The notes under the pieces: generated by a model
What the model saw: the letters and a program-made list of their open reading frames with translations, nothing else
What the model was told of the DNA's origin: nothing
The model's database searches: none
Virus record (IMG/VR): IMGVR_UViG_3300036885_000119
Span: 1-57,882 of that record
DNA from: a virus
Lineage: Duplodnaviria > Caudoviricetes
Length of the DNA: 57,882 bases
Strand: one strand, 5' to 3'
Program-made: the position numbers and the translations under genes
Shown: positions 6,806 to 57,494 of the stretch, in pieces
How the letters are laid out: each line of letters begins with the position of its first letter
Position numbering within the stretch: the stretch's first letter is position 1

Positions 6806-6807
6806 AA

Positions 6808-6972
6808 ATGTTTGAATCAGCCAAGGCAATTATAGCCCACAGGGAGGAACAAAATGAACCTATTGTGCAAAAAGATATAGATTATATTGCTAAAACATGT
6901 GCAAGTGAAATCATGAAGGTGATTGATGATGTTTATAAAAATAAAAAAGAAGTCAAAAAGGTCTCGGAATGA
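6808..6972 (+). CDS. small hypothetical protein (54 aa)
   Basis: Fills the gap after TerL; ATGA overlap with the next gene. Confidence 0.55.
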   Translation: MFESAKAIIAHREEQNEPIVQKDIDYIAKTCASEIMKVIDDVYKNKKEVKKVSE

Positions 6973-7976
6973 AACTGTATAATCTCGACCAGCACGTTTC
7001 GGTGAACAGCGACCTTGAATTTATCTGGCGTAAACTTGGTCACGAGCTTGATATTGACAGCATTTCCGGCCATTCGTGGGTGATGGGAAGGGAGCGCAAG
7101 CATGTTCCACTGGTTGAAAATAATATTGGCAGTATTGTCGAGAAAGAATTGTGGCGAGAGTTTTATGATACTTACCATGAAAGATTATCAGCTTATGACG
7201 GATACGTATGCTGCTATCCGCCCGTGTTCGCCCTGCTCTACAAGCAATTTACAGACAAGCGCGTTATTGTTCACATACCAATCAGATATGATTTCCCCTA
7301 TACAGACAATGAGCCAAGCCTCAAAGTGCTCAATGATTTTCTTGTCAGTGATCCCGTGATTGTATCAGCTAACAACAAGTTGGACAAGGCTTATTTTGAG
7401 GACCGTACAAATGGCAAGAAAGAGTGTAAATACATTCCGTCGCTGTGTGAATATACCGGGATGAAATGGGCACCAAAGCGCAGTGAGTTTTTGCTGTATG
7501 ATGGATCACGAAAATGGCGCATTGATGGCACGCTGAATAGGTATGACGATTTTCACCCGCATACGTGGAATGATATACAGTCTTTCCGTGGTATTATTCA
7601 TATGCCGTATAATATTTCGACCATGAGCATGTTTGAGCAGTACACCGCCTGCATACCGCTGTTCTATCCGTCGAAAGAGTTTTTACTTAAAATGTACCGG
7701 AGTGGGGCCGGTGTGCTTGAACAATGTTTCTGGTCAACAACACAGCACGGCAAGTACGGATTTGGCACAATAGAATCTGTGCTTGATTTGGCAGATTTCT
7801 ACAGTGAGACATTCCCGCATATTATCACTTTTGATAATCTGGCGCAGCTTGATGATAAGCGGTATGATGATGCGTTTTTGGAGTGGACAAGCACAGAAAT
7901 GGAAAAGGATAACCAATGGAACAGAAGCGTCGTGTACAAGGCGTGGGAAGAAATCCTAAGCGAGTTAAAAAAGTAA
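6969..7976 (+). CDS. glycosyltransferase-like hypothetical protein
   Basis: 335 aa; C-terminal HMPYNISTMSMFEQYTACIPLFYPS resembles a GT-B sugar-binding segment; first gene of the GT island. Confidence 0.5.
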   Translation: MKLYNLDQHVSVNSDLEFIWRKLGHELDIDSISGHSWVMGRERKHVPLVENNIGSIVEKELWREFYDTYHERLSAYDGYVCCYPPVFALLYKQFTDKRVIVHIPIRYDFPYTDNEPSLKVLNDFLVSDPVIVSANNKLDKAYFEDRTNGKKECKYIPSLCEYTGMKWAPKRSEFLLYDGSRKWRIDGTLNRYDDFHPHTWNDIQSFRGIIHMPYNISTMSMFEQYTACIPLFYPSKEFLLKMYRSGAGVLEQCFWSTTQHGKYGFGTIESVLDLADFYSETFPHIITFDNLAQLDDKRYDDAFLEWTSTEMEKDNQWNRSVVYKAWEEILSELKK

Positions 7977-25969: not shown

Positions 25970-25976
25970 GCAAAAT

Positions 25977-28900
25977 ATGTCTGAAGATATTACCGACCTT
26001 GCTTCACCTGTCGAGGACATATCCGACCTTGCCTCCCCCGTGTCTGGCGCTGCCGGTGGACAACAGCCCGCGCACGTCCAGAACCTTATGTCACGTCTCG
26101 GGCCGCTGCTTATGTCTGGTGCTAAAGCGGCTGTGGGGCCACGCTTTGTACAGGCCGGGAAAGATATTGCAGCAGGCGCAGCGGCGAGATCGGAAAGAAC
26201 AGAAAGAGCGCCCACATTACCAGAGCAGGCGCTAAGTGGACTCGGTGAAGCGGCAGGATTAGCGGTAGGTGTACCGTGGGAGCTTGGAAAAGCAGCAATA
26301 GGAACAACGGCGGATGCGTTAAAATCTATTACTCCGCAACCTGTTCAGCAAGCAATTCAACCAGCAGCGCAAGCCACTGAAAGCGGATTACAAAAGGTTG
26401 TTAGGGGAATTGGAAACATTCCACTTCCTGGCGGTAATAAAGTGAGTGATATTCCAGCGGGTGCGGTAGAAACATGGAAGCAGTTGCCACAAAGAGCAAA
26501 GGATATTACAAGTTCTGTGGGTGACATTTCGATGGTAGCTCCTGTTGGAAAAGGCACACAACTATTGGCTAAAGGTGCGGAAAAACTCGAAAAGGGTATT
26601 GTGGCTCCATTTGCTGAGAGAATGGCAAAGAAAGACATCGTACAAAAACAAGTAAAGGTTGATGAGCAGATAGCGAAAGCGGTAAAAAAGGGTATCAGCA
26701 AGGGAATTAAACCAACAGTTGTCGGAAAGAAAACATTGGCGCGGCATGACAAGTTTTATTTAGATGCTAACGACGCAGTAAAAACCATTGCGGATAACCG
26801 TGATAATGTAAAAATAGTTGATGAAAATGGAGAGTCTGCACCTCACCCAAGAAGCTCGGCTGAAATGGCACAAGCCGTAGATCAGACGAAAAAAATACTT
26901 TACAAGCAATATCACGACATGGCGCTTGCTGCTGGCGATAAAGGTGCTCAACTTGACGTTGCTCCGATCATAGCTAAAATTGACAAAGTAAGCAAGGATT
27001 TGAAAGAAAACCCGGAAACGCGGGCTTATGCCGAATCCTTAAAAGCCGAAATACAGGAATTGCAGGGCCAATCGCCAGAAATTATTGAAGCAAGAATAAA
27101 AGATTTGAATAGTTCCCTTGCTGGTTTTTATGAAGGCCGAACTGCGAAAGCAAAAGCCCGAATTGATGGCTCGGTTGCTAACCTTATGCGGGAAGAACTG
27201 GACAATAAAATAACCGGCGCAGTTGGTGAAGGATATCAGGGGCTAAAGAATAAATATGGCTCGTTGAAAGCAATTGAAAAAGAAGTAAATCACCGCGCTA
27301 TTGTGAACGCTCGTAAAGCGGGGAAAAGTATTATAGACATGACCGATATTTTTACCGGTGGAGATTTGGCCGCCGGTGTTCTTACTATGAATCCATTGCT
27401 GATTGCCAAGGGTGTAGCTGGGCGCGGATTGAAGGAATTATACAAGGCTATCAACAATCCTGACAGGGCTGTCGCTGCAATGTTCAAGAAGGTGTATGGA
27501 TTGTCGGACAGGGCAAAGGTCGTTTCGGGAATGAGAAAAGGCGCGAAAATCCCAGAGCCGCCGCCAGAACCACCCGCTGCTCTACCCGCCCCACAGGGCA
27601 CTATGCAGACGCAATTCATTCCCGGCCAGGAACCGGGCGCACCAGTACCAAAGCCCGGTATACCGCAGACAATTAAGAATCTTGGCAATGAAGGCGGGTA
27701 CATTGATCTAGGGGGGGCTAGTGCTCCCGTCGAGCCACCCCCAACCGCCCCAAAAGGAGCGCCCGGAGCGGCGGCAAAGACCCCGCATGAGCAACTTATT
27801 GAGCGTATTCGTGGGCAAAAGCCATCGGAAGCACCTATTACCCCAGAGATACAGCAGGCGCAGATAGCACAATTACGGACAGAACGTGATGCAAAAGCGA
27901 CGGAAATAGAAGCGCAGAAAAATGCAAAATCTGAGCTATTTCCTGACGAGCCAATAACGCCGGACGAGATAGCATCAAAGAAAAATGATAATAACATAGA
28001 CTTTTTCAAAAAAATAGGTTATACTTATGATGAAGGGAGAAAAGTTTATGCCTACAATCCTGACCCCGCAGATGTTGAGCGAGTATGGTCTGCCTTCGGA
28101 CGCGACAGACGAGATGTTTCACAACGCTCTGAAGAACTCCGTGCTGAAATTGAAGCAAAACGCGCCGCAGAGCAACTCCCCCGTGGTGCCGAAGTTCCAC
28201 CCGTTGAAGGTGCACCAAGTCAAAGCGGTGAAGTCGCCCAAGGTGAGAGCAAGCCGCCACAAGATGTTCTTCCGCAGGGCAGCGAGACTGAGCCGCAAGG
28301 CAGCTTAAGCCCGGAAGACCAAGCCACACAAGACCGCCTGACTCGCATTGCCGAGCGCAAAGAGCGAAAGCCAGGCGAAGTTTATACCCACGACTTAACA
28401 GACAATCCCCAAGCAAACCGCGTATTGTGGCGTGATAATGTGCGCCGACAAGTCAAGTGGCATATTGACCATGACGAAAACGGTACGCTCCGTGACGACA
28501 GGAAAGACCAGTGGGCTTACGTCATGGGTGAGTCTACCAAGACGGGCGAGCCTGTAAACATTACTCCACGAACACAAGGAATATTACAGGGGCACTCGTT
28601 TGAATTTAGTGCTGGTGATTATGGCCCTAGTGAAATGGAATTACGCAGCGAGGAAATGACACCGGATGAAGGAAAGCAATACTGGACAGAGGATTTGGGC
28701 CAGCCTGAAGGCGAAATGCCGGTAACGTGGGATGAGGTTATGCAGGAAATCCGCAGTGCGGAAACAAGCCGTGGACAGGCGGAAAGGGTTACTAAAGGGC
28801 ATGTGGTGAACGCGGGTAAGGTAGAGGATGGTGGGGAAGAAGCTAAGTACGCCGCAGAACAGGACGAAAGAAAATCAGAAGAAGCGTCCCATGAGGAACA

Positions 28901-45069: not shown

Positions 45070-46346
45070 ATTACCACGGGCACAAGGCCCGTGGCTTTAA
45101 ACAACAGGCATCGAGCAGGTATCGCAGTTATGCAACACCATCTCAATAGTACCCGGTTTTCTGGGGGATTTACTTCTCCCCGTATCTATCGAGTTCAACC
45201 CGATAGACATAGAACGTCCTGCAATATTCTTGCTGGCGTTCCAATCCGCGTCTGCGGTATAACCGCAGCTCGTACATTTGAACAAAAAACCGTCCCTGTT
45301 GGATTTGTCAATATGACCGCATCTATGACACATACGAGAAGTATTCTTGGGAGAAACAACCTCCACAGAAACACCCTTGGAAGCAGCCTTATAAGTAACA
45401 CAAAACGTGAATTTTCCATAAGGCCAACGGTTAATCCTACTTCTAAGAGTTTTACCTTTACTCTTAGAGGCTTCTCGTATGTTAGACAAATCCTCAAGAA
45501 CAATTTTTCTTGCACCAACAGAATCAGCCCAATTTACAAGTCTCTTAGAAGCAACATGCACCGCATGTTCAGTTACGGAAGCCTCATGCCCCGACATTCT
45601 CCGAAGGAGTTGTCGAGACGATCTGGTTCCAACTGCTTGTACTTTGGCTCTGGTTCTTCTGATGTTGGAAAGTTTGTTGTTCAGATGATTAGCTTTATAA
45701 AACAATTTGTTGTTATTGAAGTCAGTTGCAACAAAAAGTCTTTTTATTCCTTGATCAACTCCAATAATAGTTCCAGTAGTAAGTGGTTCTGTAATGTCAA
45801 TTTCATAAGAAAGATTTAAATACCATTGATTTTCTTTAATAAATATTTTAGAATCTTTCCAGTTATCAGGAATTGTTCTGGAATCTTGAAAAGAAATAGG
45901 ATCAGACCAAAGAGTAATATTTTTCTTGGTTCGAGCAAAATCTCTCTTCCAGACAATAGGAATGGATTGCTTTTTGTAAATAGACAGATGCCATTCTTTC
46001 TTTGTCTTTTGAGTTTTATATGCAGCAGAAATGGTTCTGAAAAGAGTACAAGTAAGTTGAGAAGGAAGATTAAATTTCTCACGAACTGTTTTATAGTATG
46101 CTTGTGCAAGTCGGTTAGAATTTATTTCCTTGGTTTCAAAAACAATTTTAGAAAGCCAATTGCAGGCAGAAAGCCAGTGTGGAAGCAACTTATCTGCTTT
46201 ATGCTGACCGGTGAATTTAATTTTCATAGTTCGTATTGTTTTCACAGTTAGTAATATAGTATATTTGTATTGAGAGTAGTTAAACAATTTAACTTGGAGG
46301 ACGCAATTCCTCCACGGGGACAAGCCCCGTGGTTTCCTTGCGTAAA
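45066..46346 (-). mobile_element. IS200/IS605-family tnpB-only element, TAM TGAT
   Basis: Minus-strand left end TTTACGCAAGGAAACCACGGGGCTTGTCCCCGTGGAGGAATTGCG; right end AAAGCCACGGGCCTTGTGCCCGTGGTAATTTAC. Removal restores AAA CAA TCA TGA, an ATGA overlap of the flanking genes. Confidence 0.9.
45097..46245 (-). CDS. tnpB: RNA-guided endonuclease TnpB
   Basis: GVDQG, VLEDL, CHRC...CTSC, ADWNAS; likely start GTG 46245 or ATG 46227. Confidence 0.92.
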   Translation of the reverse strand: MKTIRTMKIKFTGQHKADKLLPHWLSACNWLSKIVFETKEINSNRLAQAYYKTVREKFNLPSQLTCTLFRTISAAYKTQKTKKEWHLSIYKKQSIPIVWKRDFARTKKNITLWSDPISFQDSRTIPDNWKDSKIFIKENQWYLNLSYEIDITEPLTTGTIIGVDQGIKRLFVATDFNNNKLFYKANHLNNKLSNIRRTRAKVQAVGTRSSRQLLRRMSGHEASVTEHAVHVASKRLVNWADSVGARKIVLEDLSNIREASKSKGKTLRSRINRWPYGKFTFCVTYKAASKGVSVEVVSPKNTSRMCHRCGHIDKSNRDGFLFKCTSCGYTADADWNASKNIAGRSMSIGLNSIDTGRSKSPRKPGTIEMVLHNCDTCSMPVV

Positions 46347-46349
46347 ATC

Positions 46350-46850
46350 ATGAAAATAATTCACGGTTTCCGCCTTTCAGCGCCGGAGGTTTCTGGCTAT
46401 CCCGACACGGTAAGAATCTACAATGGAAACACCGGGGATATGCTTCTGTATGAATCTACACGGTTCCGTACCAACCCAAATCCTAATAAACCCAGCACGC
46501 AACAGCCCTGGTATAAGGTATACGCCCAGATAGCACCTACTAACGAGCAAGGCATACCGTGGAAATGTGTCGAGACAATCAAGCGCGGCCGGTGTATTGC
46601 CCTGAATGACGAGGGACCTGTTGCCACGACGGGGCCGGATCCCAATAACGAGGGCAAGGCGTTCGCCACTGCCGTGCTGATCCATTGCGGCTTTTCCGAT
46701 ACATGGCCTGGCTCGATGGCTTGCCAAACGATATTCCCGGCGGATTGGGCCGCATTTATAAGCCATTTCACCCTGGGAGAGTCGGGTATATATATTTTAA
46801 CGGACGAAACAGTAAGCGAGGAAGAACAGACTATTATGGAATCACTTTAA
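46350..46850 (+). CDS. putative endolysin (YkuD/L,D-transpeptidase-like catalytic motif)
   Basis: LIHCGFSDTWPGSMACQ (HxG...SxxC); lysis-module position; true start ATG 46350. Confidence 0.6.
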   Translation: MKIIHGFRLSAPEVSGYPDTVRIYNGNTGDMLLYESTRFRTNPNPNKPSTQQPWYKVYAQIAPTNEQGIPWKCVETIKRGRCIALNDEGPVATTGPDPNNEGKAFATAVLIHCGFSDTWPGSMACQTIFPADWAAFISHFTLGESGIYILTDETVSEEEQTIMESL

Positions 46851-47105: not shown

Positions 47106-47363
47106 ATGGGATTGATTCAAGCGGTTGTTGCGTTATGGCAGGGGATGAACGGCCATAAGTTTAACAGTGGGGCGGCGATAACGATTTTATCGTTCGCTTT
47201 CCTAAAGGCATTTACGGCTTTTGGAATGACACCGGATCAAGCTACCAGTGACGCGACATACATTATAGGCGCGGTTGGTGTGGTGATAATGCTGGTAGGA
47301 TATGTGCATCAGTGGTATAAAAGTATTCAAGCAAAAAAGGCGATGACTCCAGCCGCAAAGTAG
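47106..47363 (+). CDS. holin (putative)
   Basis: 85 aa, two TM helices, basic C-terminus; last late gene. Confidence 0.6.
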   Translation: MGLIQAVVALWQGMNGHKFNSGAAITILSFAFLKAFTAFGMTPDQATSDATYIIGAVGVVIMLVGYVHQWYKSIQAKKAMTPAAK

Positions 47364-47382
47364 TTCGGTGGTGAATGAGGAG

Positions 47383-47407
47383 GGGCGGTTTGCTACCGCC
47401 CTTTTTT
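47383..47407 (+). terminator. rho-independent terminator at the convergence of late arm and cassette array
   Basis: GGGCGGT-TTGCT-ACCGCCC-TTTTTT. Confidence 0.8.
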
Positions 47408-47752
47408 ACGTTTCGCAATATCGGAGGCACATGGAGGTTGACCGAAACAACAGTAAATATCCGCGCAGGCCTTAGCTATATTTAATACATCATCCTTAGT
47501 GTACGCCATTTTCGGCTGCGGCTGTGTTGGTGGTTTGTTCGCCACCGCTCCGCGCTTGTTGTAAATGGTTGACCTCCTTTGTTTCGGCGACGCATCTTCC
47601 CAGCCGTCTAAATCAAACCACGTCGCTTCGCCTTTTATCGTGTGACAACCCATTAAATCCTTTGCAACAAAACACTCTCTACGCTCATTGTCGTGCGTTA
47701 TTCCTACGAAACGGAATCCTTCGATGTTGGGGAGGTCTTGTAAATGTTTCAT
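47393..47752 (-). CDS. cassette 16 hypothetical protein (degenerate, chimeric 3' end)
   Basis: ORF follows GTTGCCGG leader; 3' end contains a copy of the cassette-14-type end. Confidence 0.6.
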   Translation of the reverse strand: MKHLQDLPNIEGFRFVGITHDNERRECFVAKDLMGCHTIKGEATWFDLDGWEDASPKQRRSTIYNKRGAVANKPPTQPQPKMAYTKDDVLNIAKACADIYCCFGQPPCASDIAKRKKGR

Positions 47753-47790
47753 TTGCGCCGCCTTTCAATTTTCAAAGCCGGTTTTATTTC

Positions 47791-47934
47791 CGGCAACGTC
47801 TACCGCACTGCGCGAAGTTGCGCTATGGCCACTTCTATATAATTGATAGCCACCTGTAAATCTAATGAGCCACCACGCTCGATTAGAGCAGCAGCGTCTT
47901 TAAGCAAAGCAATTTCGGGCTGTGGTTGTTGGAT
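47791..47934 (-). repeat. attC-like site 15
   Basis: ATCCAAC AACCACAGCCCGAAATTGC...GCAACTTCGCGCAGTGCGGTAGAC GTTGCCG. Confidence 0.75.
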
Positions 47935-48123
47935 GCTCGTTGTCGCGGACTCCATTAATTTTAGTGCGGCCCTATTCATTGGTTTTCCACAATAGCAACA
48001 AAAGTTAAATTCTTTATTCGGTTTGAAGTCGGGGTCACAGTCTGGAAAATAAAGCTCTCTGCCACAGTCCGAAATGAAATCATCTGATCCTTTTTCCATG
48101 CGATGAAGTTTGCATAATTCCAT
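47800..48123 (-). CDS. cassette 15 Cys-rich hypothetical protein
   Basis: MELCK...SDCG...FCCYCGKPM; ATG 48123. Confidence 0.65.
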   Translation of the reverse strand: MELCKLHRMEKGSDDFISDCGRELYFPDCDPDFKPNKEFNFCCYCGKPMNRAALKLMESATTSIQQPQPEIALLKDAAALIERGGSLDLQVAINYIEVAIAQLRAVR

Positions 48124-48162
48124 TTGGCCGCACTCTCTTTCTATGGTTCCGCGACTATGGCA

Positions 48163-48341
48163 TCCCAACGGTTGCCGCACTCGCCCGCCGTGCCGCTATG
48201 ACTGCATATAATGGCCGTGTATCGGACAATCCTTATTGACAACCAATGACACGCACGCACTTACAACCACCTTACCGCGAGTTGTCTTTTGATGCAGGCC
48301 GTTCTCTTTGCAAAGGCATGGCGCGGCTGCGGCTGTTGGTG
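48163..48341 (-). repeat. attC-like site 14
   Basis: CACCAAC AGCCGCAGCCGCGCCATGCC...GGCACGGCGGGCGAGTGCGGCAACC GTTGGGA. Confidence 0.75.
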
Positions 48342-48510
48342 GTTCGTTCGCCACCGCTCCTAATGATTTGAGCGCGTCCCCCATTTTTACGGCCTCAGAA
48401 CTTGACAAAGACATATTTACTTCGATGCCGCCGCTTAAAGTGCTAAGAAAAATAATGCTGCCGCGTTTTTCAATGCTCAACTTGGCGCTTAAACAGTTTA
48501 TAATTTCCAT
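48196..48510 (-). CDS. cassette 14 hypothetical protein
   Basis: ATG 48510 after AAGGAG. Confidence 0.6.
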   Translation of the reverse strand: MEIINCLSAKLSIEKRGSIIFLSTLSGGIEVNMSLSSSEAVKMGDALKSLGAVANEPPTAAAAPCLCKENGLHQKTTRGKVVVSACVSLVVNKDCPIHGHYMQS

Positions 48511-48546
48511 GACGCGCTCCTTATAATTTGGTCGGTGGCGTATGAC

Positions 48547-48659
48547 CACCAACGCGTGCGCACCGCACGAAGTGGCGGTCACACGGGTTTAACATTTATG
48601 GTAAGCTCCACTTTGGGGAGCGTCATAGTGACCGACATTTTGTGCTGCGCTTGTTCGAC
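48547..48659 (-). repeat. attC-like site 13
   Basis: GTCGAAC AAGCGCAGCACAAAATGTCGGTCAC...GTGACCGCCACTTCGTGCGGTGCGCACGC GTTGGTG; a second R''-like copy lies at 48714-48720. Confidence 0.7.
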
Positions 48660-48715
48660 GCTGGTGCGTAGGGTGTGCCATTCGTCGTCAGACAAGCGAT
48701 TAGGTGCGCACGCGT

Positions 48716-48958
48716 TCAACGCAAGAGGCGCGCGGTCTTGCGCCGGGCCGCAGGGCCAGAAAGCATACCGCGAGCTTCCTCTGGTTTAAGAGGTCGGCAA
48801 TCTTGCTGCGTTATCCATCCTCTGCTACTTACATCACCTATAACTCTGTAATCCCCACTATTACGAGTGTCCGGTTTGTCATCTACGGCAATTATGGCAC
48901 CAACATAATTTTTGTACCAATAAAAATCACCAGTACATTTTGTTATTTTTACTAACAT
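48716..48958 (-). CDS. cassette 13 hypothetical protein
   Basis: AGGAGG RBS inside the leader inverted repeat. Confidence 0.6.
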   Translation of the reverse strand: MLVKITKCTGDFYWYKNYVGAIIAVDDKPDTRNSGDYRVIGDVSSRGWITQQDCRPLKPEEARGMLSGPAARRKTARLLR

Positions 48959-49003
48959 TGCCGACCTCCTATAAGTGTCTCGCTCTTAGCCCTGCGGACT
49001 TGC

Positions 49004-49119
49004 GTTGAACGTTCGCCACATGAGCGCCGTTATTTTTTTATAATAGATGAGTCTAAAACCCATTCAATTTTCAATGAGTCATATCGTGCAAAATAATGGC
49101 GACTCTGCGGCTGTTGTGC
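49004..49119 (-). repeat. attC-like site 12
   Basis: GCACAAC AGCCGCAGAGTCGCCATTATTTT...AAAATAACGGCGCTCATGTGGCGAAC GTTCAAC. Confidence 0.75.
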
Positions 49120-49257
49120 GGCTGTTTTCGCCGCTTCCAATATTTTTAACCGCGCATTGACTGTATTATACGCATTTTGGTGCAAGGCACCTGCGACACA
49201 CATTACTACTGCCAACACAATATATCCGATTCTTGCAGCCCAGTCTTTTGCGTACAT
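49030..49257 (-). CDS. cassette 12 small membrane protein
   Basis: One N-terminal TM segment; AGGAGG RBS. Confidence 0.6.
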   Translation of the reverse strand: MYAKDWAARIGYIVLAVVMCVAGALHQNAYNTVNARLKILEAAKTAAQQPQSRHYFARYDSLKIEWVLDSSIIKK

Positions 49258-49292
49258 ATTGTTCCTCCTGCGCGGTTTATAATTTGAGGCGG

Positions 49293-49813
49293 AGTTTGAG
49301 AGTCGAGGTAATCATTTTTGGTTCTCAATGTATCGTTGTATGGTTTCTGCTGAGACATTCCCCGCAGTTGCGGCGAAATAACTTCGAGTCCAAAGAGAGG
49401 GGAGCCTTCTTAAAATTGGATATTTATCTCTTAATTCGTGAGAAGTTATTCCTTTACATTCCTTAACAATTTCGTGAGCCGCAGTAGTGGGCCATCCTCG
49501 AACGAATAAATGAACATGGTCTGGCTTTATTGCCAGTTCGAGAACTTCCCACCCTTTATCTTTACATTTTTGCAGGATAAGTGTTCGACAATCTTTTGCA
49601 ATACTACCAACCAAAACAGGCTTTCTCCTTTTCGGTATCCATATAAGATGAAAAACCATTAGGTGTACGCGGTGTTCGTCTCTTTGATATTGCATACTCA
49701 TGTTTATAATATACCATCCATCTACAAGATTGTCAACAACTTTCTCAAATATCTTTGCGGGCCTAACCACCGGGGTTAAAACCCCGTGGATTGCAGCCCG
49801 TCCCCGCGTTCAA
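49293..49813 (-). mobile_element. IS200/IS605-family tnpA-only (probably truncated) element inserted in the cassette 12 leader
   Basis: One end hairpin CCACGGGGTTTTAACCCCGGTGG; no second hairpin; flanked by GGCGG on both sides; removal restores the cassette leader. Confidence 0.8.
49312..49701 (-). CDS. tnpA: Y1 HUH transposase TnpA
   Basis: HLIWIPKRRK, PDHVHLF (HUH), LWTRSYF, IQRYIENQ (catalytic Tyr); TTGACA-17-TATATT promoter at 49708-49736. Confidence 0.95.
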   Translation of the reverse strand: MSMQYQRDEHRVHLMVFHLIWIPKRRKPVLVGSIAKDCRTLILQKCKDKGWEVLELAIKPDHVHLFVRGWPTTAAHEIVKECKGITSHELRDKYPILRRLPSLWTRSYFAATAGNVSAETIQRYIENQK

Positions 49814-49829
49814 GGCGGCGAAAATGCCG

Positions 49830-49964
49830 TCACAACGTTTACGCAACGGTTGAAGTAACTTGCGCACTGCAATCACCTACCGGAAACGAACATATATTAC
49901 CACTCCTACGATCTTTACAAGGAGAATGACAATCGCAAGTTATTTTAACCTTGCGTTGTTGCAC
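49830..49964 (-). repeat. attC-like site 11
   Basis: GTGCAAC AACGCAAGGTTAAAATAACTTGCG...CGCAAGTTACTTCAACCGTTGCGTAAAC GTTGTGA. Confidence 0.78.
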
Positions 49965-50135
49965 GGGGCGCTTCGCCCGAACTGTTCGGCCCGCTTCCGC
50001 TGCATTCAGGGCGGCACATATTTTATGCGCGCTGTGCTTTACTTTGCAAACGCAGAGGCTAAAAGCTCGCTTCACTTCGTCAACGTACCATGTCTCATTT
50101 ATTCCAGGAATAACCTGATACTTTTTGCCGCCCAT
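49839..50135 (-). CDS. cassette 11 hypothetical protein
   Basis: ATG 50135 after AAGGA; reads through its attC. Confidence 0.6.
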   Translation of the reverse strand: MGGKKYQVIPGINETWYVDEVKRAFSLCVCKVKHSAHKICAALNAAEAGRTVRAKRPVQQRKVKITCDCHSPCKDRRSGNICSFPVGDCSAQVTSTVA

Positions 50136-50162
50136 ATAAAATCCTTTCAAGGGCCGAATTGC

Positions 50163-50193
50163 GTGCAACGTGCGCCGTACTGCACGATGTTTG
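50163..50193 (-). repeat. truncated attC-like site 10 (right arm only)
   Basis: CAAACATCGTGCAGTACGGCGCAC GTTGCAC with no upstream AAC or left arm. Confidence 0.6.
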
Positions 50194-50634
50194 CTAGGTC
50201 GCTTCCTCTGTTTTGGGCGCGACCTGTCTTGTCATTGTTTTTTCTATTCCGTCTTTTTCTTGCCCAAGCAAATCAATTTTTGCTTGAACATCTGCCATCA
50301 ATTTTATTTTGTTTTTGTTTTCTTCAGTTGCTTCGTACAAATTTTCGTATCGTTGTTTCGACCGTCCCTTCTGGTCGTCAACAACCCAGGCGTGCCATCC
50401 GTTCTCGAAAAAAACAGAAGTTACGGTATATGTTTTCCACTGTTCACCGGTTCGATACGAATGATATTTTATAATAACATCGAAACGCTTGAAATCTTTT
50501 TTGTCTAAATCATCTATTCGCTTTCTCACTTTTTCCAATTCTTTGTTTTTGTAATCAGAATCTCCGATGCGAACAGTAAACTCGAAATTAAGTTCAGAAA
50601 ACTTGATTATGAAGCCTTTGTATTCTTCTTGCAT
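50194..50634 (-). CDS. cassette 10 hypothetical protein
   Basis: 146 aa; AAGGAG RBS. Confidence 0.7.
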   Translation of the reverse strand: MQEEYKGFIIKFSELNFEFTVRIGDSDYKNKELEKVRKRIDDLDKKDFKRFDVIIKYHSYRTGEQWKTYTVTSVFFENGWHAWVVDDQKGRSKQRYENLYEATEENKNKIKLMADVQAKIDLLGQEKDGIEKTMTRQVAPKTEEAT

Positions 50635-50682
50635 TTTCTTCTCCTTGTCGCGCCCTATTAATTTCAGAGCGGCCTAAATTGT

Positions 50683-50831
50683 GTACAACGGTTCAGGCAC
50701 CCGCCCGAAGTTGCCGCGCCCACGTTTCGATTGCGCACTGAACAACTGACGGATCGGTTATTGTTGTAACTTTTGCAGCACACTCCATTGACGTCGCTAT
50801 GTCGGCAATTTTGTCGCTGCGGTTGTTGGCT
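50683..50831 (-). repeat. attC-like site 9
   Basis: AGCCAAC AACCGCAGCGACAAAATTGCCG...CGGCAACTTCGGGCGGGTGCCTGAACC GTTGTAC (arms partly mismatched). Confidence 0.65.
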
Positions 50832-51019
50832 GCCGGTACTCCGGGAACTGTAGCGGCCAACTCCGATGCGTCTGGAGGTTGCAATCCCGGCACGTTAGCA
50901 ATGATGTGAGTACGTATAAATCTATAAATTCTGCCAAGGTCGGAAACGGTGCAACGCTCCAAATCTTCGTTAATATCCTCAATAAATTTCGCTTTATAAT
51001 CGAAGTCTGTTTTTTCCAC
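50693..51019 (-). CDS. cassette 9 hypothetical protein
   Basis: GTG start after AGGAGG. Confidence 0.55.
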   Translation of the reverse strand: MEKTDFDYKAKFIEDINEDLERCTVSDLGRIYRFIRTHIIANVPGLQPPDASELAATVPGVPAANNRSDKIADIATSMECAAKVTTITDPSVVQCAIETWARQLRAGA

Positions 51020-51058
51020 TTGTAACCTCCTATTTGTAACGCTCTTGGCCGCTATTGC

Positions 51059-51123
51059 AGCCAACGTGCGCCGTTATGCGCTGGCCGGGGTAGTTTCCGG
51101 CTTGCGTATAGCGGCTGTTGTAA
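51059..51123 (-). repeat. attC-like site 8
   Basis: TTACAAC AGCCGCTATACGCAAGCCGG AAACTACC CCGGCCAGCGCATAACGGCGCAC GTTGGCT. Confidence 0.8.
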
Positions 51124-51370
51124 GCCCGTTGTCAACCGCTCCGCTTTTTCTGGCGGCGCATAACTGCTCTATGAAATTAATGATGTCCTTCAAACAACCA
51201 TCGTTAAATATTGTATCCGAAATTGGATAAAAACAGTATGTTCGCCACGCCGAATACCATTTAATTTCACCTAAAAACCCGTTGGTGCGCTTATTGTGGA
51301 TTGACCAACGGCTGGTCTTCCCGGTATCTCCCAGGCACATAAAGCAGATATACTGGTATTCGGTTCTCAT
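51074..51370 (-). CDS. cassette 8 hypothetical protein
   Basis: MRTEYQYI...LGEIKWYSAWRTYCFYP...IFNDGCLKDI; ATG 51370. Confidence 0.7.
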   Translation of the reverse strand: MRTEYQYICFMCLGDTGKTSRWSIHNKRTNGFLGEIKWYSAWRTYCFYPISDTIFNDGCLKDIINFIEQLCAARKSGAVDNGLTTAAIRKPETTPASA

Positions 51371-51404
51371 GCGCCGCCCTTTCAATGGTCGGTTGACTAA
51401 TGGC

Positions 51405-51489
51405 TTACAACGTTCGCGCAACTCGCATGATGCGCGATATAATAAAATCAACAATCCTCTAATCGCGTTTCATGCTTGCGCTGTTGTTG
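51405..51489 (-). repeat. attC-like site 7
   Basis: CAACAAC AGCGCAAGCATGAAACGCGAT...ATCGCGCATCATGCGAGTTGCGCGAAC GTTGTAA. Confidence 0.8.
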
Positions 51490-51650
51490 GCTGTACAGCG
51501 CACCTCCATAATTTTCTGCCGCGCTTTATCTACTATTGCGTACCAGTAGAAAATTACAAATGCACGTGGGAAGCCTGACCAAAAATGCCATTTGCCGCAA
51601 TGCGGATAATTGCAAAATGACTTACTTTCTTTAATAAAACCCTGCCACAT
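51459..51650 (-). CDS. cassette 7 small protein
   Basis: GAGG RBS; 63 aa. Confidence 0.55.
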   Translation of the reverse strand: MWQGFIKESKSFCNYPHCGKWHFWSGFPRAFVIFYWYAIVDKARQKIMEVRCTANNSASMKRD

Positions 51651-51698
51651 AAAAACCTCTCTTAGCGTGGCCTATAATTTTAAGGTGCGCCGTATTGA

Positions 51699-51778
51699 CT
51701 ACAACGTGTGCCGCTTGTTGACGTTTTAATGTTGCTACGACTGCATTAGGCCCGCACCCCAACAAGCGGCTGTTGGTG
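51699..51778 (-). repeat. attC-like site 6
   Basis: CACCAAC AGCCGCTTGTTG...CAACAAGCGGCACAC GTTGTAG. Confidence 0.75.
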
Positions 51779-51815
51779 GCCTGTAAACCAAGCTACCTTG
51801 ATTTTCTGCCGGGCG

Positions 51816-52172
51816 TTAAAATGGTAACTCCTCAAAATCATCATCGTCGTCGTATTGGTATTTATGGGCGGCGGCGAATTCCGCATCTTCGAGCGCCTTG
51901 ACGGTTCCTTTTTGACGTGGAGTCCATTCATCGGGATTAAGTTTTTTAATTTCTTCAACCTCACTTTTTAAACCTGAAAGCATGCACTGCGCCTGAGTAC
52001 GTTTTGAAGCTTCGGACTTTGCCATTTGGTATTGCCGTACTGCTTCATCTGCAAGGCGCTGTGCGGTCTTTCTTAGCTCGTTCGCCGCCGCCGGAGTAGT
52101 AGCTTCGTTGGAGAGCGATACTTCAAAATGGCAGTAGTCGAACGATAACATTATTTTTACGCTTGCACTCAT
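51816..52172 (-). CDS. cassette 6 hypothetical phage protein
   Basis: ASVKIMLSFDYCHFEVSL...LRKTAQRLADEAVRQYQMAK; acidic tail ending DDFEELPF. Confidence 0.7.
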   Translation of the reverse strand: MSASVKIMLSFDYCHFEVSLSNEATTPAAANELRKTAQRLADEAVRQYQMAKSEASKRTQAQCMLSGLKSEVEEIKKLNPDEWTPRQKGTVKALEDAEFAAAHKYQYDDDDDFEELPF

Positions 52173-52224
52173 TGAATGATCCCTTCTAAGCGCCCGGCCT
52201 ATTATTCCGAGCTTGGTTTATGAA

Positions 52225-52360
52225 CACCAACGGTTCGCTAAACGGCTGATAGTTGCCGCATCCGCTCGATAAACTCTCCAACCATTAACGGCAATTCTCG
52301 CTGAGGGATAGCATCAACCTTGACAACGAGAGCGGCAATTTCAGCCTTTAGCTGTTGTGC
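52225..52360 (-). repeat. attC-like site 5
   Basis: GCACAAC AGCTAAAGGCTGAAATTGCCGC...GCGGCAACTATCAGCCGTTTAGCGAACC GTTGGTG. Confidence 0.8.
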
Positions 52361-52474
52361 GCTGTTGGCAATTTCTACAACACGTTCCAGAGCTTGCCAT
52401 GCGTCCAAAGCCTCTTTAACATTACCAGTGATATATGCTACCCTACCAAGGTCTCTAAATTCACTAATGTCCAT
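52238..52474 (-). CDS. cassette 5 hypothetical protein
   Basis: ATG after AAGGAG; about half of the ORF lies inside its attC. Confidence 0.55.
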   Translation of the reverse strand: MDISEFRDLGRVAYITGNVKEALDAWQALERVVEIANSAQQLKAEIAALVVKVDAIPQRELPLMVGEFIERMRQLSAV

Positions 52475-52513
52475 TGGCAAGCTCCTTTCAAATTAAGAGA
52501 AATTGACAATTGC

Positions 52514-52586
52514 GTACAACGTCCGATGCATGGCGAAGTGCGGTACTCCGCATTTGGGGGTACTCCCCGCCATGCATTTGTTAGGC
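52514..52586 (-). repeat. attC-like site 4
   Basis: GCCTAAC AAATGCATGGCG...CGCCATGCATCGGAC GTTGTAC; the ORF stop TAA lies in the R'' box, as in classical cassettes. Confidence 0.8.
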
Positions 52587-52901
52587 GATGTTCTCCACCG
52601 CTTCCTTAGTGTCTTGCGGCGCGTCTTGATTTTCTTCTGTCCATTCCAACCGATCTGTAACTTGATGGTCAACGTGCCGATATGCTAATCCGTCTATCAA
52701 ATCTTTAGGATAGGGAATGTCCGATGCACGGCTTTTGTGTTGCGCATACGCTTCTGATTCGGTAAACAAATGAGCGTTGTCGAGATTGCACGTATACCCT
52801 GACCGCCCCTTACCCCACCACAACAAACAGTTCCCAACAACCTGACGAGCGTCACGCAAATAATAAAGCCGTTCGGGATTTAATGTCTTTCTTGTTTTCA
52901 T
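52581..52901 (-). CDS. cassette 4 hypothetical phage protein
   Basis: YYLRDARQVVGNCLLWW...GYTCNLDNAHLFT...DIPYP. Confidence 0.7.
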   Translation of the reverse strand: MKTRKTLNPERLYYLRDARQVVGNCLLWWGKGRSGYTCNLDNAHLFTESEAYAQHKSRASDIPYPKDLIDGLAYRHVDHQVTDRLEWTEENQDAPQDTKEAVENIA

Positions 52902-52960
52902 GGTTTTCTTTCTTGGTTTTCGCGCCGCCTATAATATCTGGCTTTGCGGTGGAGAATTTC

Positions 52961-53050
52961 GCCTAACGTGTGCCGCACTCGCCAGATGACGCGGCCTATA
53001 AAAAACTACTCCGCCAGTGCTGCCGCGTTTTCTGGCTGCGGCTGTTGTGC
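52961..53050 (-). repeat. attC-like site 3
   Basis: GCACAAC AGCCGCAGCCAGAAAACGCGGC...GCCGCGTCATCTGGCGAGTGCGGCACAC GTTAGGC. Confidence 0.8.
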
Positions 53051-53359
53051 GATAGTTGCAGCCGACTCCTTATTTTCAGGGGTCGAAATAACTTTGCAAA
53101 GAGGAAACTCCCAATCTCTTAAAAAGGCTCTCTGCAAATGCTGCATACTATCCATCCATTCCAACTTTAAACCAGGAACATAAATTGACTTAGTATAAAG
53201 CATCAGATAAAGCTCGTGATGCTTAACGACCATCATTTTAACACCAAGGTACTCAACAAAAGAACCAACTGGAGCAAAGACTTCCACTGCTTTCAAGCGT
53301 TTGCAGAGAGCCTCCCATTCTTCGTCAACTTTAGGAACCGACTTTTTGAACGGCCACAT
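53006..53359 (-). CDS. cassette 3 hypothetical protein
   Basis: MWPFKK start; stop lies in the attC loop. Confidence 0.65.
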   Translation of the reverse strand: MWPFKKSVPKVDEEWEALCKRLKAVEVFAPVGSFVEYLGVKMMVVKHHELYLMLYTKSIYVPGLKLEWMDSMQHLQRAFLRDWEFPLCKVISTPENKESAATIAQQPQPENAAALAE

Positions 53360-53397
53360 TTCGACCCCCTATAATATTTGATCTCGGCTGCAATTTT

Positions 53398-53537
53398 GCA
53401 CAACGTTTGACAAAGGGCGAAGTTAAACCGGATCGTATACCTTACACTTTGTATTGCAACAAAAACCTTCTTGACGAACAAAAGCACAATCTGAAAGCCG
53501 GGAGCAAGGTTTAATTTCGTCACTTTGTTTGTTGGCT
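53398..53537 (-). repeat. attC-like site 2
   Basis: AGCCAAC AAACAAAGTGACGAAATTAAACC...GGTTTAACTTCGCCCTTTGTCAAAC GTTGTGC. Confidence 0.8.
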
Positions 53538-53692
53538 GCGGCTACTGCCGGAACTGTAGCGGCCAACTCCTCTGAATTGAGCGCGGCGTTGTTTGGCACA
53601 AAACAATTGATAGCTATTACAACGCATCTATTGCACGGAAATTCAGATGAAAAACCGGAAACATATTTACACTTATCGCAAATTTGATTCAT
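53423..53692 (-). CDS. cassette 2 Cys-rich hypothetical protein
   Basis: CDKC...PCNRC; AGGAG RBS. Confidence 0.6.
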   Translation of the reverse strand: MNQICDKCKYVSGFSSEFPCNRCVVIAINCFVPNNAALNSEELAATVPAVAAANKQSDEIKPCSRLSDCAFVRQEGFCCNTKCKVYDPV

Positions 53693-53732
53693 AAGCCGCG
53701 CTCCTATTTATAACGCTCTTGGCCGCTATTGC

Positions 53733-53823
53733 AGCCAACGTTCCCCGCATGTGTGCTGGTTGCGCCTATAAACAAGGAAAATCCGCTAACAACTGCGCAA
53801 CTGGCATACTGCGGGTGTTGGCA
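53733..53823 (-). repeat. attC-like site 1
   Basis: TGCCAAC ACCCGCAGTATGCCAGTTGCGC...GCGCAACCAGCACACATGCGGGGAAC GTTGGCT. Confidence 0.8.
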
Positions 53824-54410
53824 GATGTAAAGCCGGATTCCTTATTTTCTGGTGCGCCCATTTGTATTCCGTCTTTTATTTCGTTCCCGAAAGCATCCCA
53901 TCCGCTACGCTTGCGCCGGGCAAACATTTCCAAGTACGGCCCTGGCATAGACTCGCAAAAGTGATAGATTGACTCCGGCTTTCGGGAATGAAATAGATTT
54001 TCAGAAAGAAGTCCAATAAAGCCATTGGGGGGCGGCTTGGGGCTTCCACGCCTACCGATAAGCACCGGTTCAGTACAGCCACGAATCCAGAAACCGATAC
54101 CATACGGCACCTTAATTTCCAATACACCCCAAAGGTTTGTTGAAACACTCGTAACTTTTACCCACGGAAAGCCGGTAACATAATCAAAGCCCCAAGCCTG
54201 CATTAGCGGCAAACAATCTTCCGCAAGTTTTGGCCATGTCGCCCACATTACCAACACGCAATCAGGATCGGTAAATTCGGACACCGGAAGTTGTTTCATA
54301 TCCGAAAGCGACATGGTAGAATACTGGTTTGCCGCCGCCCCCCGACACCCGGAATTAGAATAACTCCACGGTGGATCAGCTAAAATGACTTTGTATTTAT
54401 GGGCGCACAT
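53766..54410 (-). CDS. cassette 1: MT-A70 family N6-adenine methyltransferase
   Basis: VILADPPW, LVMWATWP, WGFDY, GFWIRGCTE, HSRKP, YLEMFAR...GWDAFGNE. Confidence 0.92.
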   Translation of the reverse strand: MCAHKYKVILADPPWSYSNSGCRGAAANQYSTMSLSDMKQLPVSEFTDPDCVLVMWATWPKLAEDCLPLMQAWGFDYVTGFPWVKVTSVSTNLWGVLEIKVPYGIGFWIRGCTEPVLIGRRGSPKPPPNGFIGLLSENLFHSRKPESIYHFCESMPGPYLEMFARRKRSGWDAFGNEIKDGIQMGAPENKESGFTSANTRSMPVAQLLADFPCL

Positions 54411-54436
54411 ATAATCTCGCTCTCCGGCTTTATTTC

Positions 54437-54455
54437 TGCCAACTAGCTATTAGAT
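54437..54455 (-). promoter_or_regulatory. attI-like simple site at the head of the array
   Basis: ATCTAAT-AGCTA-GTTGGCA: L-like box, 5-nt spacer, GTT core, no upstream hairpin. Confidence 0.65.
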
Positions 54456-54468
54456 GATCTATATATAA

Positions 54469-54678
54469 CTATCTCAATGATTTTACGTATCTTTCGGAAA
54501 GACCTAATTTTATCAATTTTTCCTTTGCTGCTTCTTTTAAAAAATGTCCTGCCGATCCGCTTTTCCTTTTGCAGTTAGGATATTTTACGGAATGTAATCG
54601 GCATACCTTGGAAAATTCCAACGACATTAGCACAGTCACTAATGTCATCGCATCGTATGCTTTTGATTGTTTTACCAT
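54469..54678 (-). CDS. small basic protein directly upstream of the attI-like site (possible RHH-like regulator)
   Basis: 69 aa; SAGHFLKEAAKEKL helix; preceded by a very AT-rich promoter-like tract (54680-54742). Confidence 0.55.
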   Translation of the reverse strand: MVKQSKAYDAMTLVTVLMSLEFSKVCRLHSVKYPNCKRKSGSAGHFLKEAAKEKLIKLGLSERYVKSLR

Positions 54679-55090: not shown

Positions 55091-55136
55091 TAGACGGCAG
55101 GGAAACCACACGGCTTTAGCCGCAGTGGATTGTTAC
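55091..55136 (+). mobile_element. solo-hairpin IS200/IS605 remnant (46 bp)
   Basis: TAGACGGCAGGGAAACCACACGGCTTTAGCCGCAGTGGATTGTTAC: left-end-type start, one hairpin, right-end-type TTAC. Confidence 0.7.
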
Positions 55137-56111: not shown

Positions 56112-56534
56112 TCATACTATCATCACGCTTTCCGGATCTGGTATAACGCATCCCATTTCTGTTGCTGCCCACCGTTGTATTTTTTCGATGTATTCACAAA
56201 ATTGATCTTTCGTTAACCGCGCCGTACTCATAACCGTATCCGGTAAGCCTTGTCGTTTCACAAGGAGAAATTTTATTTTCAGCGCCTCGTGCATTTCTTC
56301 CGGCGTGTACCCGGTATGCGCTGATAACAACTCTACCACCACTCCGAAATAATATCTGTTCTGTTGAAGGCTTCTAACGGTTCCCTTGTTTTTGTGTCCC
56401 ATTGCCAGGAACATTTCCGAGCCTTCTCTTATCCCATACAGATAAGCATTATAACGGTTTTGTTCCCCTCTATCAAAATGAAACTTACCGTCTATTTTTT
56501 TACCAAGAAATTTTGGGACAAATTTATCTTTCAT
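56112..56534 (-). CDS. NinB-like recombination protein
   Basis: RSLQQNRYYFG...GYTPEEMHEALK...STARL...F.EYIEKI...IPDP. Confidence 0.7.
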   Translation of the reverse strand: MKDKFVPKFLGKKIDGKFHFDRGEQNRYNAYLYGIREGSEMFLAMGHKNKGTVRSLQQNRYYFGVVVELLSAHTGYTPEEMHEALKIKFLLVKRQGLPDTVMSTARLTKDQFCEYIEKIQRWAATEMGCVIPDPESVMIV

Positions 56535-56559
56535 AATTAGAAAGGAAGCAATATTTTAA

Positions 56560-56982
56560 TTAAAATGGCAAACTGGAATCTTCACCCGGCTGTCTCCCGG
56601 CTAAAGGATAAGGATTTGGCTGTTTCAGCGGCAAAACCTTATCCGGGACGCTTCCAGCTTTCGGGGCGCGTACACGGATGCCACCGACAAGTTTTCCGGC
56701 ATAGGATACATTCGGGTCATGGTAGAGCACAATCTTTGTACCTATCCAGTTTGTTTCAATGTTGTCATCGAAACCGGTGATGCGGGCGATAATCTGTCCG
56801 TTCGTGATGTTTAACACCAGCGGCTTGTCCAGTTCCGAAAAGTGAAGAGCCGTTTTCATATCCGGCTCAGCTCCCTGCTGTGCCACATTTTCCTGTGTCA
56901 ATGCAGAAATTGTTACCAGACAACCAACGCCAACATCTTCCTTGCGTAAAAAGTTACTTGTCTTGAGATCGGAAAGATTCAT
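56560..56982 (-). CDS. putative single-stranded DNA-binding protein
   Basis: SNFLRKED, KPLVLNITN, WIGTKIVLY, GIRVR, acidic ...SLPF tail. Confidence 0.6.
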   Translation of the reverse strand: MNLSDLKTSNFLRKEDVGVGCLVTISALTQENVAQQGAEPDMKTALHFSELDKPLVLNITNGQIIARITGFDDNIETNWIGTKIVLYHDPNVSYAGKLVGGIRVRAPKAGSVPDKVLPLKQPNPYPLAGRQPGEDSSLPF

Positions 56983-57002
56983 TTTGTACCTCCTGTTAAA
57001 GT

Positions 57003-57494
57003 TTATTTGATCTGTACGTTTTGCATTTCCACAATACGCGCCGGTAAAATTATACCCTGCTTGAGTGCGGCCTTAATTTCGGTGAGCATGGCAGACCGCT
57101 CCACCTTGACGAAACTTTCCGGCAGGGCGTTAATGTCCTGTACCTCCACGCGCTCGGATTTGCGCCATGATATTTTGCCGCACCCGTATTCCAGCTTTTG
57201 ACCTGGCTGTATGATGTAGCCAAGATAATTTTTGTTTCGCTCCGCATTGTTGCGGTGGACTTTGATACGGGATTTGAGCGCGTCCAGCTCCGCCTCTATC
57301 ATATCGGCAAGGGCAAGTTGGTTTTTATAGTACCGGATTGTGCAGTCTATTTTCTTGTCTCTGTCCATTTCGAGCGCGGTTAATTCCGTGTCAAACTCCG
57401 GTAAAATCTCTCCGTTGTGCTCGGCGGCATATTCCTCGGCCCTGTCCTGCGCCAATTGATATGCCGCGTCAATACTGAAAAGAGAAATGTTCAT
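57003..57494 (-). CDS. Siphovirus Gp157-family protein
   Basis: Coiled coil, KISWRKSERVEV.D...LP...IKAALKQG...ARIVE.QNVQIK. Confidence 0.8.
   Translation of the reverse strand: MNISLFSIDAAYQLAQDRAEEYAAEHNGEILPEFDTELTALEMDRDKKIDCTIRYYKNQLALADMIEAELDALKSRIKVHRNNAERNKNYLGYIIQPGQKLEYGCGKISWRKSERVEVQDINALPESFVKVERSAMLTEIKAALKQGIILPARIVEMQNVQIK

Follow-up and report, generated by a model that had tools for sequence, protein, structure and literature searches.

How do two small phage genes with unrelated coding bodies come to be enclosed in almost the same flanking sequence? The question is raised by IMG/VR virus record IMGVR_UViG_3300036885_000119, a linear tailed-phage genome of 57,882 bp from peat with a CheckV completeness estimate of 74%, which was analysed whole (hereafter, the window). 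Its minus strand carries, at 47393-54443, a 7-kb array of 16 same-orientation gene cassettes with core sites at every junction. Two of these, cassette 2 (50690-51065) and cassette 9 (53405-53739), have in common what is here called a shell: a cassette-specific inverted repeat around the open reading frame (ORF), made up of an outer stem, an internal loop and an inner stem. An earlier sequence-only reading had picked out this pair and proposed that cargo can be swapped inside the outer repeat. What it saw in this pair holds true, as one visible part of a wider cassette system; modular re-use is supported and reaches beyond the original proposal through: 1) a translated hairpin loop that appears to be swappable in its own right; and 2) movement of whole cassettes by recombination at their cores. 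With somewhat better than even confidence, we interpret the locus as an integron-like array of the type formed by clusters of attC sites lacking an integrase (CALINs), in which shells and hairpins would be re-used, a recombinase would be supplied in trans and homologous recombination would reassort the parts.

The two cassettes agree on both sides of the gene. Their leaders, each comprising the core ACGTTG, outer arm, internal loop and Shine-Dalgarno sequence, are identical at 40 of 41 nucleotides (nt) between 53701-53741 and 51027-51067 (minus strand, like every cassette feature given below), and a repeat finder extends the match to 47 nt at 94%. Their 3' arms (50807-50864 and 53513-53570) share 84% identity across 58 nt, both reading GGAGTTGGCCGCTACAGTTCC..GCAGCCAACAA in gene orientation, and include a small inserted hairpin that lies only in the 3' arm, with no 5'-arm counterpart. 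The peptides previously read across it, ASELAATVP in ORF 50693-51064 (cassette 2) and SEELAATVP in ORF 53423-53692 (cassette 9), were confirmed, and the mini-hairpin stems differ in a compensatory way, with CGG-AGTA-CCG in cassette 2 vs GGC-AGTA-GCC in cassette 9. Read along the gene, cassette 9 consists of a 5' outer arm (53718-53739), an internal loop (53704-53717), an inner arm (GCCGCGCTC, 53695-53703), the ORF, the second inner arm (GAGCGCGGC, 53579-53587), a 3' outer arm with the mini-hairpin (53531-53570) and a translated hairpin, or 'tail' (53405-53530). In cassette 2 the same parts are the 5' outer arm (51044-51065), the internal loop (51031-51043), an inner arm (TTGTAACCTCC, 51020-51030), the ORF (50693-51019 when read from its GTG start), the second inner arm (GGAGGTTGCAA, 50874-50884), the 3' outer arm with the mini-hairpin (50825-50864) and the translated hairpin (50690-50824).

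Inner arms, ORF bodies and attC hairpins had all been said to differ between the two. The inner arms do, and the bodies are unrelated: BLASTP returns an E value of 0.054 for an alignment carried by the shell-coded linker, the local score of the body DNA is 14 where the median of 703 cassette pairs is 16, and only one of the two bodies is rich in Cys (CxxC..CxxC). With the bodies at background similarity, the case of two homologues diverged along their length is excluded. For the hairpins the claim holds in part, as the loops are unrelated but the stem bases still match (..GAC-AAATT.. / ..AACTTCG..). Here, as between other members of the shell family described below, similarity breaks off beyond ATAGGAG 5' of the body and within the A-rich loop that precedes GGAG 3' of it; the breakpoints lie at stem/loop borders and are not scattered.

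The search that the sequence-only reading had suggested, for the shared leader and shell with a catalogue of attached cargo and a map of where similarity ends, places this shell family on at least eight unrelated bodies, in the window, in four copies in G007 (a complete phage genome of the same architecture) and on five metagenome contigs. The bodies are those of cassette 9 and L084_B, cassette 2, L084_A and L132, L084_C and L134, L084_D, L127, L128, and L130. Within IMG/VR, the arm pattern with its mini-hairpin occurs outside the window four times in G007 and nowhere else; the exact 29-nt shared leader has no match among viral contigs, the G007 copy being one letter different, and a protein-based metagenome scan with cassette 9 found nothing. 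Of ten hits in the metagenome scan for the shell family, five were true and five were rejected as chance matches inside long ORFs, two of them purine-nucleoside-phosphorylase-like and two MurG-like by translation only. Across the family the distal stem occurs in covarying versions (GCGGCCAA/TTGGCCGC and CCCGGTGA/TCACCGGG) and the mini-hairpin stem in three compensating ones. The body beginning MRKIHL.. is found in two shell variants, L134 having the L084_C body with the other version of the distal stem; one body occurs with two shell variants and three tails, and L130 carries the inner arm of cassette 9 on a different body.

Near-identical outer shells are rare, in only three of 703 cassette pairs: cassette 8 of the window and its copy in phage record G004, which enclose the same body; cassettes 2 and 9; and the window cassette at 48170-48553 with a cassette of the phage-like contig C332. 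In the last of these pairs the arms (0.91/1.00 identity), inner arm and stem bases are common, body and hairpin loop are unrelated, and similarity ends inside the inner arms. Taken together, the comparisons support the shell as a unit separate from its cargo. That part of the proposal stands, with at least eight bodies behind it; swapping of cargo in situ, inside a resident shell, does not follow from it, as re-use of shells when cassettes are made fits equally well.

The shell is far from peculiar to this one family. In gene orientation each unit of the array runs from (AC)GTTR through a leader (holding the A/T-rich motif ..ATAGG as well as the ribosome-binding site), the ORF, and a segment complementary to the leader, to YAAC, from which a bulged, attC-like hairpin of 50-180 nt extends to the next ACGTTR. 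Over 38 cassettes from five phages the cores GTT/AAC are invariant (38/38). The outer stem of about 22 nt carries a conserved A.A/A.C mismatch at positions 10-11 (A.A in 18/38 cassettes; A.C, at position 11, in 25/38), the internal loop, also conserved, reads ..TTGAA..ATAGG on its 5' side and is A-rich, ending ..GGAG/GGAA, on its 3' side, and the inner stem is GC-rich, 7-10 bp long, variable by cassette and often holds the ribosome-binding site. The inner stems of cassettes 2, 9, L084_A and L084_C pair the GGAG of that site with ..CTC.. behind the body, and such pairing in RNA would occlude it. Conservation across cassettes is generally limited to motifs of 6-12 nt.

The cleaner of two tests of specificity uses the 16 window cassettes as defined by core sites only: in 13 of them the best pairing partner of the first 50 nt is the 3' part of the same cassette (means of 15.9 for self and 8.7 for cross pairing, with a cross maximum of 13), own-arm pairing not being seen in cassettes c1, c0 and cm5. 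In those 13, 20-50 nt of cassette-specific complementarity flank the ORF on both sides and are not confined to the 3' end, as they would be in a classical recombination site. A detector for pairs of arms anchored on GTTR..YAAC gave ten hits in the record, all ten inside the array, and five single hits in total over 46 unrelated 8-kb genome loci. Across the larger set of 38 cassettes, which was partly chosen by arm pairing, outer-stem positions 4-7 and 9 are filled by several Watson-Crick pair types at a level of pairing reached by none of 500 shuffles, and in the next (distal) 10 bp at least nine positions are paired in 31/38 cassettes vs 1.9% of cross pairs. From this set were dropped 48553/47526 of the window (a cross-cassette hit), 2779-3868 and 6802-7194 of G003, and 25000-26011 of G004; cassettes 2 and 9, whose mini-hairpin defeats the detector, were added by hand, and the cassette at 47798-48169 was left out. 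By DNA fold energy, the own 5' arm gives the lowest value with the own 3' part in 11 of 15 cases, with a mean gain of 11.3 kcal/mol. The shells are thus cassette-specific and covarying.

Shell and body do not exhaust the modules. The frame that crosses the 3' arm continues past YAAC and stops inside the hairpin in 26 of the 38 cassettes (it stops at the core in two and is unclear in ten), so that the hairpin loop encodes a C-terminal tail, to all appearances a further swappable module. In a collection of 5.8 billion proteins, ten have a cassette-9-type body, and all ten diverge right after (A)AN into about nine different tails; the Asn at this junction, the only nearly invariant column of the alignment, is coded by the core AAC. 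Combinations run in several directions: a cassette-9 body with a cassette-2-type tail (P0004), other bodies with cassette-2 or cassette-9 tails (P0002, P0014, P0015) and a cassette-2 body that continues up to the inner arm and then has another end (P0003). In the complete genome G007, three adjacent cassettes combine one shell family with three different bodies and as many tails. Tails often open with ..SDEIA and close with ..QLRAxx, as at 50690-50824 and 47798-47925 of the window and in P0007, P0008 and P0010; since each of these peptide ends is read from one of the hairpin's two complementary arms, DNA pairing constrains the peptide. Such combinations show that bodies and tails have been reassorted with each other at the core and at the edges of the shell.

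Whole cassettes move as well. Cassette 8 (52968-53404) has its ORF, shell and downstream hairpin all in common with G004, at 97.3% identity over 449 nt where other blastn matches between the two genomes reach 71-83%; the shared block runs from CAAAC|GTTGTGC to just after ACGTTAGGC, ends within 7-9 nt of the cores and has unrelated neighbours. A homologue of cassette 9 in G007 (85.5% over 359 nt) likewise forms a block that ends at the cores among different neighbours. Peat samples, moreover, hold population variants of the array, which were read from contigs only, and gaps of the array in sequencing runs X14, X16 and X18 carry no meaning. A 3,464-nt contig from run X11 lacks exactly the 384-nt cassette at 48170-48553 ('cm3', the one whose shell recurs in C332), with the joint 48164|48549 falling in a shared CCAACG and no mismatch to the window over 865+1910 nt. 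An RNA-library contig joins 53400 to 54440, skipping the 1,039 nt of cassettes 9 and 10, with a short side of only 25 nt, and loose ends at 54440/54443 show other cassettes at the array head in runs X14 and X11. Three further joints (49856>53816, 50181>53530 and 51393>52237) have short sides and allow no safe interpretation. Cassettes are therefore gained and lost as units, with the joint inside a 6-nt core.

The same architecture was found, by the junction pattern of the window, in IMG/VR records G002 (62,880 bp, complete, with a 3,437-bp terminal repeat), G003, G004 and G007 (57,822 bp, complete) and in G006:C332, a 56.7-kb phage-like contig binned in a Chitinivibrionales metagenome-assembled genome (MAG). 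The G002 terminase has 52% identity with that of the window, and C332 has structural genes in common with both the window and G002. Junction-pattern hits in G001/L005, L008 and L009 were rejected as chance, there being no arrays there, as were 46 of 47 hits in genome contigs. Large cassettes in G003 (L010 137-3190) wear the same shell around a PAPS-reductase-domain protein, a C5 DNA methylase and a radical-SAM protein; the methylase would fit an anti-restriction role, and we guess the same for the other two. The opening cassettes of the G002 array lie within the exact terminal repeat of that genome (1-3437 = 59444-62880); T5 and SPO1 are examples of phages with host-takeover genes in such repeats.

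Which enzyme might act on these structures? Tyrosine recombinases (PF00589) are absent from the window and from the complete genomes G002 and G007, the lack of an adjacent integrase being what sets a CALIN apart from a complete integron, and serine recombinases (PF00239) and Y1 transposases (PF01797) are absent from G002, G003, G004 and G007. The early proteins of the window, NinB and Gp157 included, have no tblastn match in G002, G003, C332 of G006 or L084, and tblastn in same-architecture relatives yielded no conserved early protein as a recombinase candidate. Integron integrases above the curated cut-off are present in 30 of 151 genomes of the candidate host phylum, and the G006 MAG itself encodes a full one on a 1.8-kb contig (345.6 bits; cut-off 265) together with two partial ones (contigs C460, C410 and C420). 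Upstream of the full integrase stands ..GGACGTTAAAC, a possible attI. As a control, a chromosomal integron of the same phylum (G023), beside its IntI gene, holds 12 near-identical attC sites of about 127 nt, and 0/11 of its cassettes pair best with their own ends; the extended shell is therefore not a general property of integron cassettes.

Under the interpretation that we prefer, the cis-acting element would be the whole palindrome of 3' arm, core, hairpin, core and 5' arm, which is contiguous only in an excised circle; there, the shell would join the hairpin in a single long stem-loop centred on the crossover site. Because the crossover site would lie mid-element, half of the element would be found as a leader and half as the 3' end of a gene. 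A structure-specific recombinase acting in trans would read the palindrome as folded single-stranded DNA, the likeliest enzyme being a host integron integrase and the alternative some other factor. Shells would be re-used when new cassettes form, and shared shells would in addition serve as 25-58 nt of portable homology through which the NinB/Orf and Gp157 module could reassort bodies and tails, for example by unequal exchange between neighbouring cassettes of one shell family. The stems may also act at the RNA level, additionally or instead.

Several observations weigh against this interpretation. Firstly, the searches brought out no enzyme for the reaction, and no Rfam family reached its gathering score in the window. 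Secondly, the RRRY/RYYY part of the core consensus is only loosely kept (e.g. GTTGTGC), and the hairpins look inverted relative to a classical cassette. On the sense strand the phage hairpins read CAAC-A-stem..stem-ACAC-GTTG, with spacers of 1 vs 4 nt and a 3'-side bulge; in G023 the larger ORFs lie opposite to the strand with the 1-nt/3-nt spacer pattern, i.e. the asymmetry is antisense there, a comparison with a single control that is to be taken as a lead only. Thirdly, the link to a host (a Fibrobacterota-type candidate) would rest on a single metagenomic bin, and the phage L' motif is not enriched in the G006 MAG outside the phage contig (26 matches vs 38 for a control pattern). Fourthly, no circular cassette junction was seen among metagenome contigs; most contig joints with the same arms and other content have short sides of 23-31 nt, and the chimeric proteins come from short contigs that could in principle be mis-joined at shared shells. 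Finally, the choice of the 38 cassettes partly by arm pairing introduces ascertainment bias, and G.T pairs show no strand bias (89 vs 102), so that selection at the DNA level is indistinguishable from selection at the RNA level.

A first competing explanation takes shells and hairpins for signals that regulate early genes as RNA or DNA (processing sites, devices that sequester the ribosome-binding site, or promoter/terminator units like the PeSLs of T4-like phages), shuffled as a by-product of relaxed homologous recombination via NinB/Orf and Gp157, no structure-specific recombinase being involved. We consider it rather unlikely. Directly upstream of the array are two predicted homologous-recombination genes (56112-57494): NinB/Orf (56112-56534, minus strand; phrog_72, E 9e-14) and Siphovirus Gp157 (57003-57494, minus strand; Pfam PF05565, E 8e-21), which opens the early-gene row. 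The lack of an integrase, the pairing of the ribosome-binding site with ..CTC.. in the four cassettes named above, and the fact that tail exchange within a shell family needs only the 25-40 nt of a shared arm would all be expected, and the PeSL cassettes of T4-like phages offer a precedent in the parts of the two accounts available (PMC2839356, PMC4122927). The explanation fares worse with whole cassettes: the 6-letter joint at the cassette loss and the ends of the cassette-8 block within 7-9 nt of the cores offer too little for recombination of the annealing type. There is no enrichment of sigma-70-like promoters (12 vs a shuffled 11.6) or of terminators (9 vs 8.4), translation of the ORFs continues through the hairpins, and the lack of tblastn matches to NinB, Gp157 and the other early proteins in G002, G003, C332 and L084 leaves the same architecture without those genes.

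By a further, rather unlikely reading, a clade of peat phages would possess an integrase-free, structure-guided cassette system, in which body, shell and translated loop are each closed by a stem and exchanged at cores of 4-6 nt, through another enzyme or through template switching between hairpins.

Very improbable, to our minds, is that each cassette is a small non-autonomous transposon with its arms as terminal inverted repeats, moved by e.g. an IS200/IS605 transposase. The arms do resemble terminal inverted repeats of 20-50 nt ending GTTG/CAAC, and the window holds one Y1 TnpA and two TnpB genes (OrfB_IS605 / Cas12f-like TNB; 485-1624 on the plus strand and 45097-46323 on the minus strand), neither of which adjoins TnpA. 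The Y1 gene (49312-49770; Pfam Y1_Tnp, E 4.5e-35), however, belongs to an IS200-type insertion (49283-49808) within the leader of a single cassette (49011-49836), whose arms (49113-49134 and 49815-49836) span it. In run X11 one contig shows this site unoccupied, an extra A apart; with the cassette arms spanning the element, the insertion is therefore later and secondary. The IS200-type element is a secondary event and not the engine of the array: its presence is polymorphic, G002, G003, G004 and G007 lack Y1_Tnp, moving units take the downstream and not the upstream hairpin, and cassettes occur only in one head-to-tail array per genome. Upstream of the Y1 TnpA, the hairpin at 49765-49793 recurs at 55104-55132 as a copy of 72% that no transposase gene adjoins. 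Scarcely credible, lastly, is that cassettes 2 and 9 are a diverged simple duplication, as copies 2.7 kb apart in one array might suggest, or that their shared pieces are due to chance or assembly, given shells 84-98% identical around bodies at background (one Cys-rich and the other not), the same shell family on other bodies in a complete, independently assembled genome and five metagenome contigs, and an array recovered at a word share of 0.94-1.00 in ten runs.

The array sits in an otherwise recognisable phage genome. Genes for TnpB, the large terminase, the portal and structural proteins lie on the plus strand. At the left end, the minus strand encodes a primase-helicase and a replication initiator, and between about 57.5 and 47.4 kb it bears a succession of small early genes. 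The array begins with an MT-A70 methylase cassette (53740-54443), preceded at 54444-54471 (minus strand) by an AT-rich segment without a hairpin that ends ..TA|GTTG, a candidate attI-like insertion point, and the last cassette ends at a terminator near 47372-47405. No tRNAs were found in the window. The array is held, in part or whole, by 17 DNA-run rows, 15 of them peat metagenomes, and ten runs hold 0.94-1.00 of the sampled array words. In the peat metatranscriptome library X18, contigs at a depth of 30-121 cover 47300-47466, 48916-49327, 50229-50551, 51913-52166 and 54440-54676; DNA carry-over is possible and transcription is not proven by them. Searched by blastn against 50,697 phage records the whole array has no match, and searches for related loci returned none with the 173-aa protein at 46329-46850 and two distant ones with Gp157.

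How a recombination site comes to join an unrelated gene, i.e. how a cassette is born, is an unsolved problem (Ghaly et al. 2021, PMC8352920). Here the site is large and can be recognised to either side of the gene, so that its re-use by different genes can be followed in the sequence. The array further shows how a protein linker can be encoded by a DNA recombination structure, and a protein domain by its loop, so that exchange of cassettes at the DNA level is at the same time a shuffling of protein domains in phage early genes. Should a structure-guided system of this kind be real, it would provide a combinatorial engine for two-domain host-takeover or anti-defence proteins, and a natural view of cassette birth.

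Set beside known systems, the array has partial likenesses to four. IS200/IS605 elements transpose as single strands via folded hairpins next to a short cleavage motif, and their ends are not inverted repeats. The dependence on folded hairpins that is proposed here, and the Y1 gene in the window, recall them; unlike them, the cassettes end in inverted repeats, and the Y1 gene is polymorphic, secondary and absent from the relatives. The PeSLs of T4-type phages are composite promoter-terminator stem-loop motifs (PMC2839356, PMC4122927), and as far as the available parts of these sources describe them they resemble the array in their small variable early genes, stem-loop motifs and modular shuffling without a dedicated recombinase gene. 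Unlike them, the array has no promoter or terminator signal above shuffles, coding hairpins, and joints of six letters; the long conserved direct repeats between units that mark PeSLs are wanting, given the three of 703 pairs with near-identical outer shells, and no early promoter was found on the gene strand of cassette leaders except that of the IS200-type element, with the proviso that a sigma-70 consensus may not be of the host's type. Phage CALINs have been published, virulent phages included, with DNA methyltransferases among the cargo, and phage methylases are discussed as a means to overcome host restriction (Qi et al. 2023, PMC9892861, in the parts available). The array agrees with them in same-orientation cassettes, attC-type hairpins, the lack of an integrase and a cargo of methylases (MT-A70 in the window, a C5 methylase in G003), and differs from those described in the same parts of that source in its 16 cassettes, cassette-specific extended inverted repeats, translated hairpins and reassortment of bodies and tails. 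In the literature searched, no account was found of a two-sided, cassette-specific extended palindrome with a conserved mismatch in phage arrays, of hairpin loops translated as exchangeable tails, or of an array of such size and population dynamics. Measured against the sedentary chromosomal integron used as control (G023), the phage shells mostly differ among themselves, the palindrome reaches past the core to either side, no IntI adjoins and the hairpin has its asymmetry on the sense strand. Chromosomal integrons routinely place a single attC type on unrelated genes, and their attC conservation is taxon-specific (Ghaly et al. 2021, PMC8352920, in the portion available), and the phage array has in common with them a single recombination element on unrelated cargo, the cores RYYYAAC/GTTRRRY, a bulged hairpin and the gain and loss of cassettes unit by unit.

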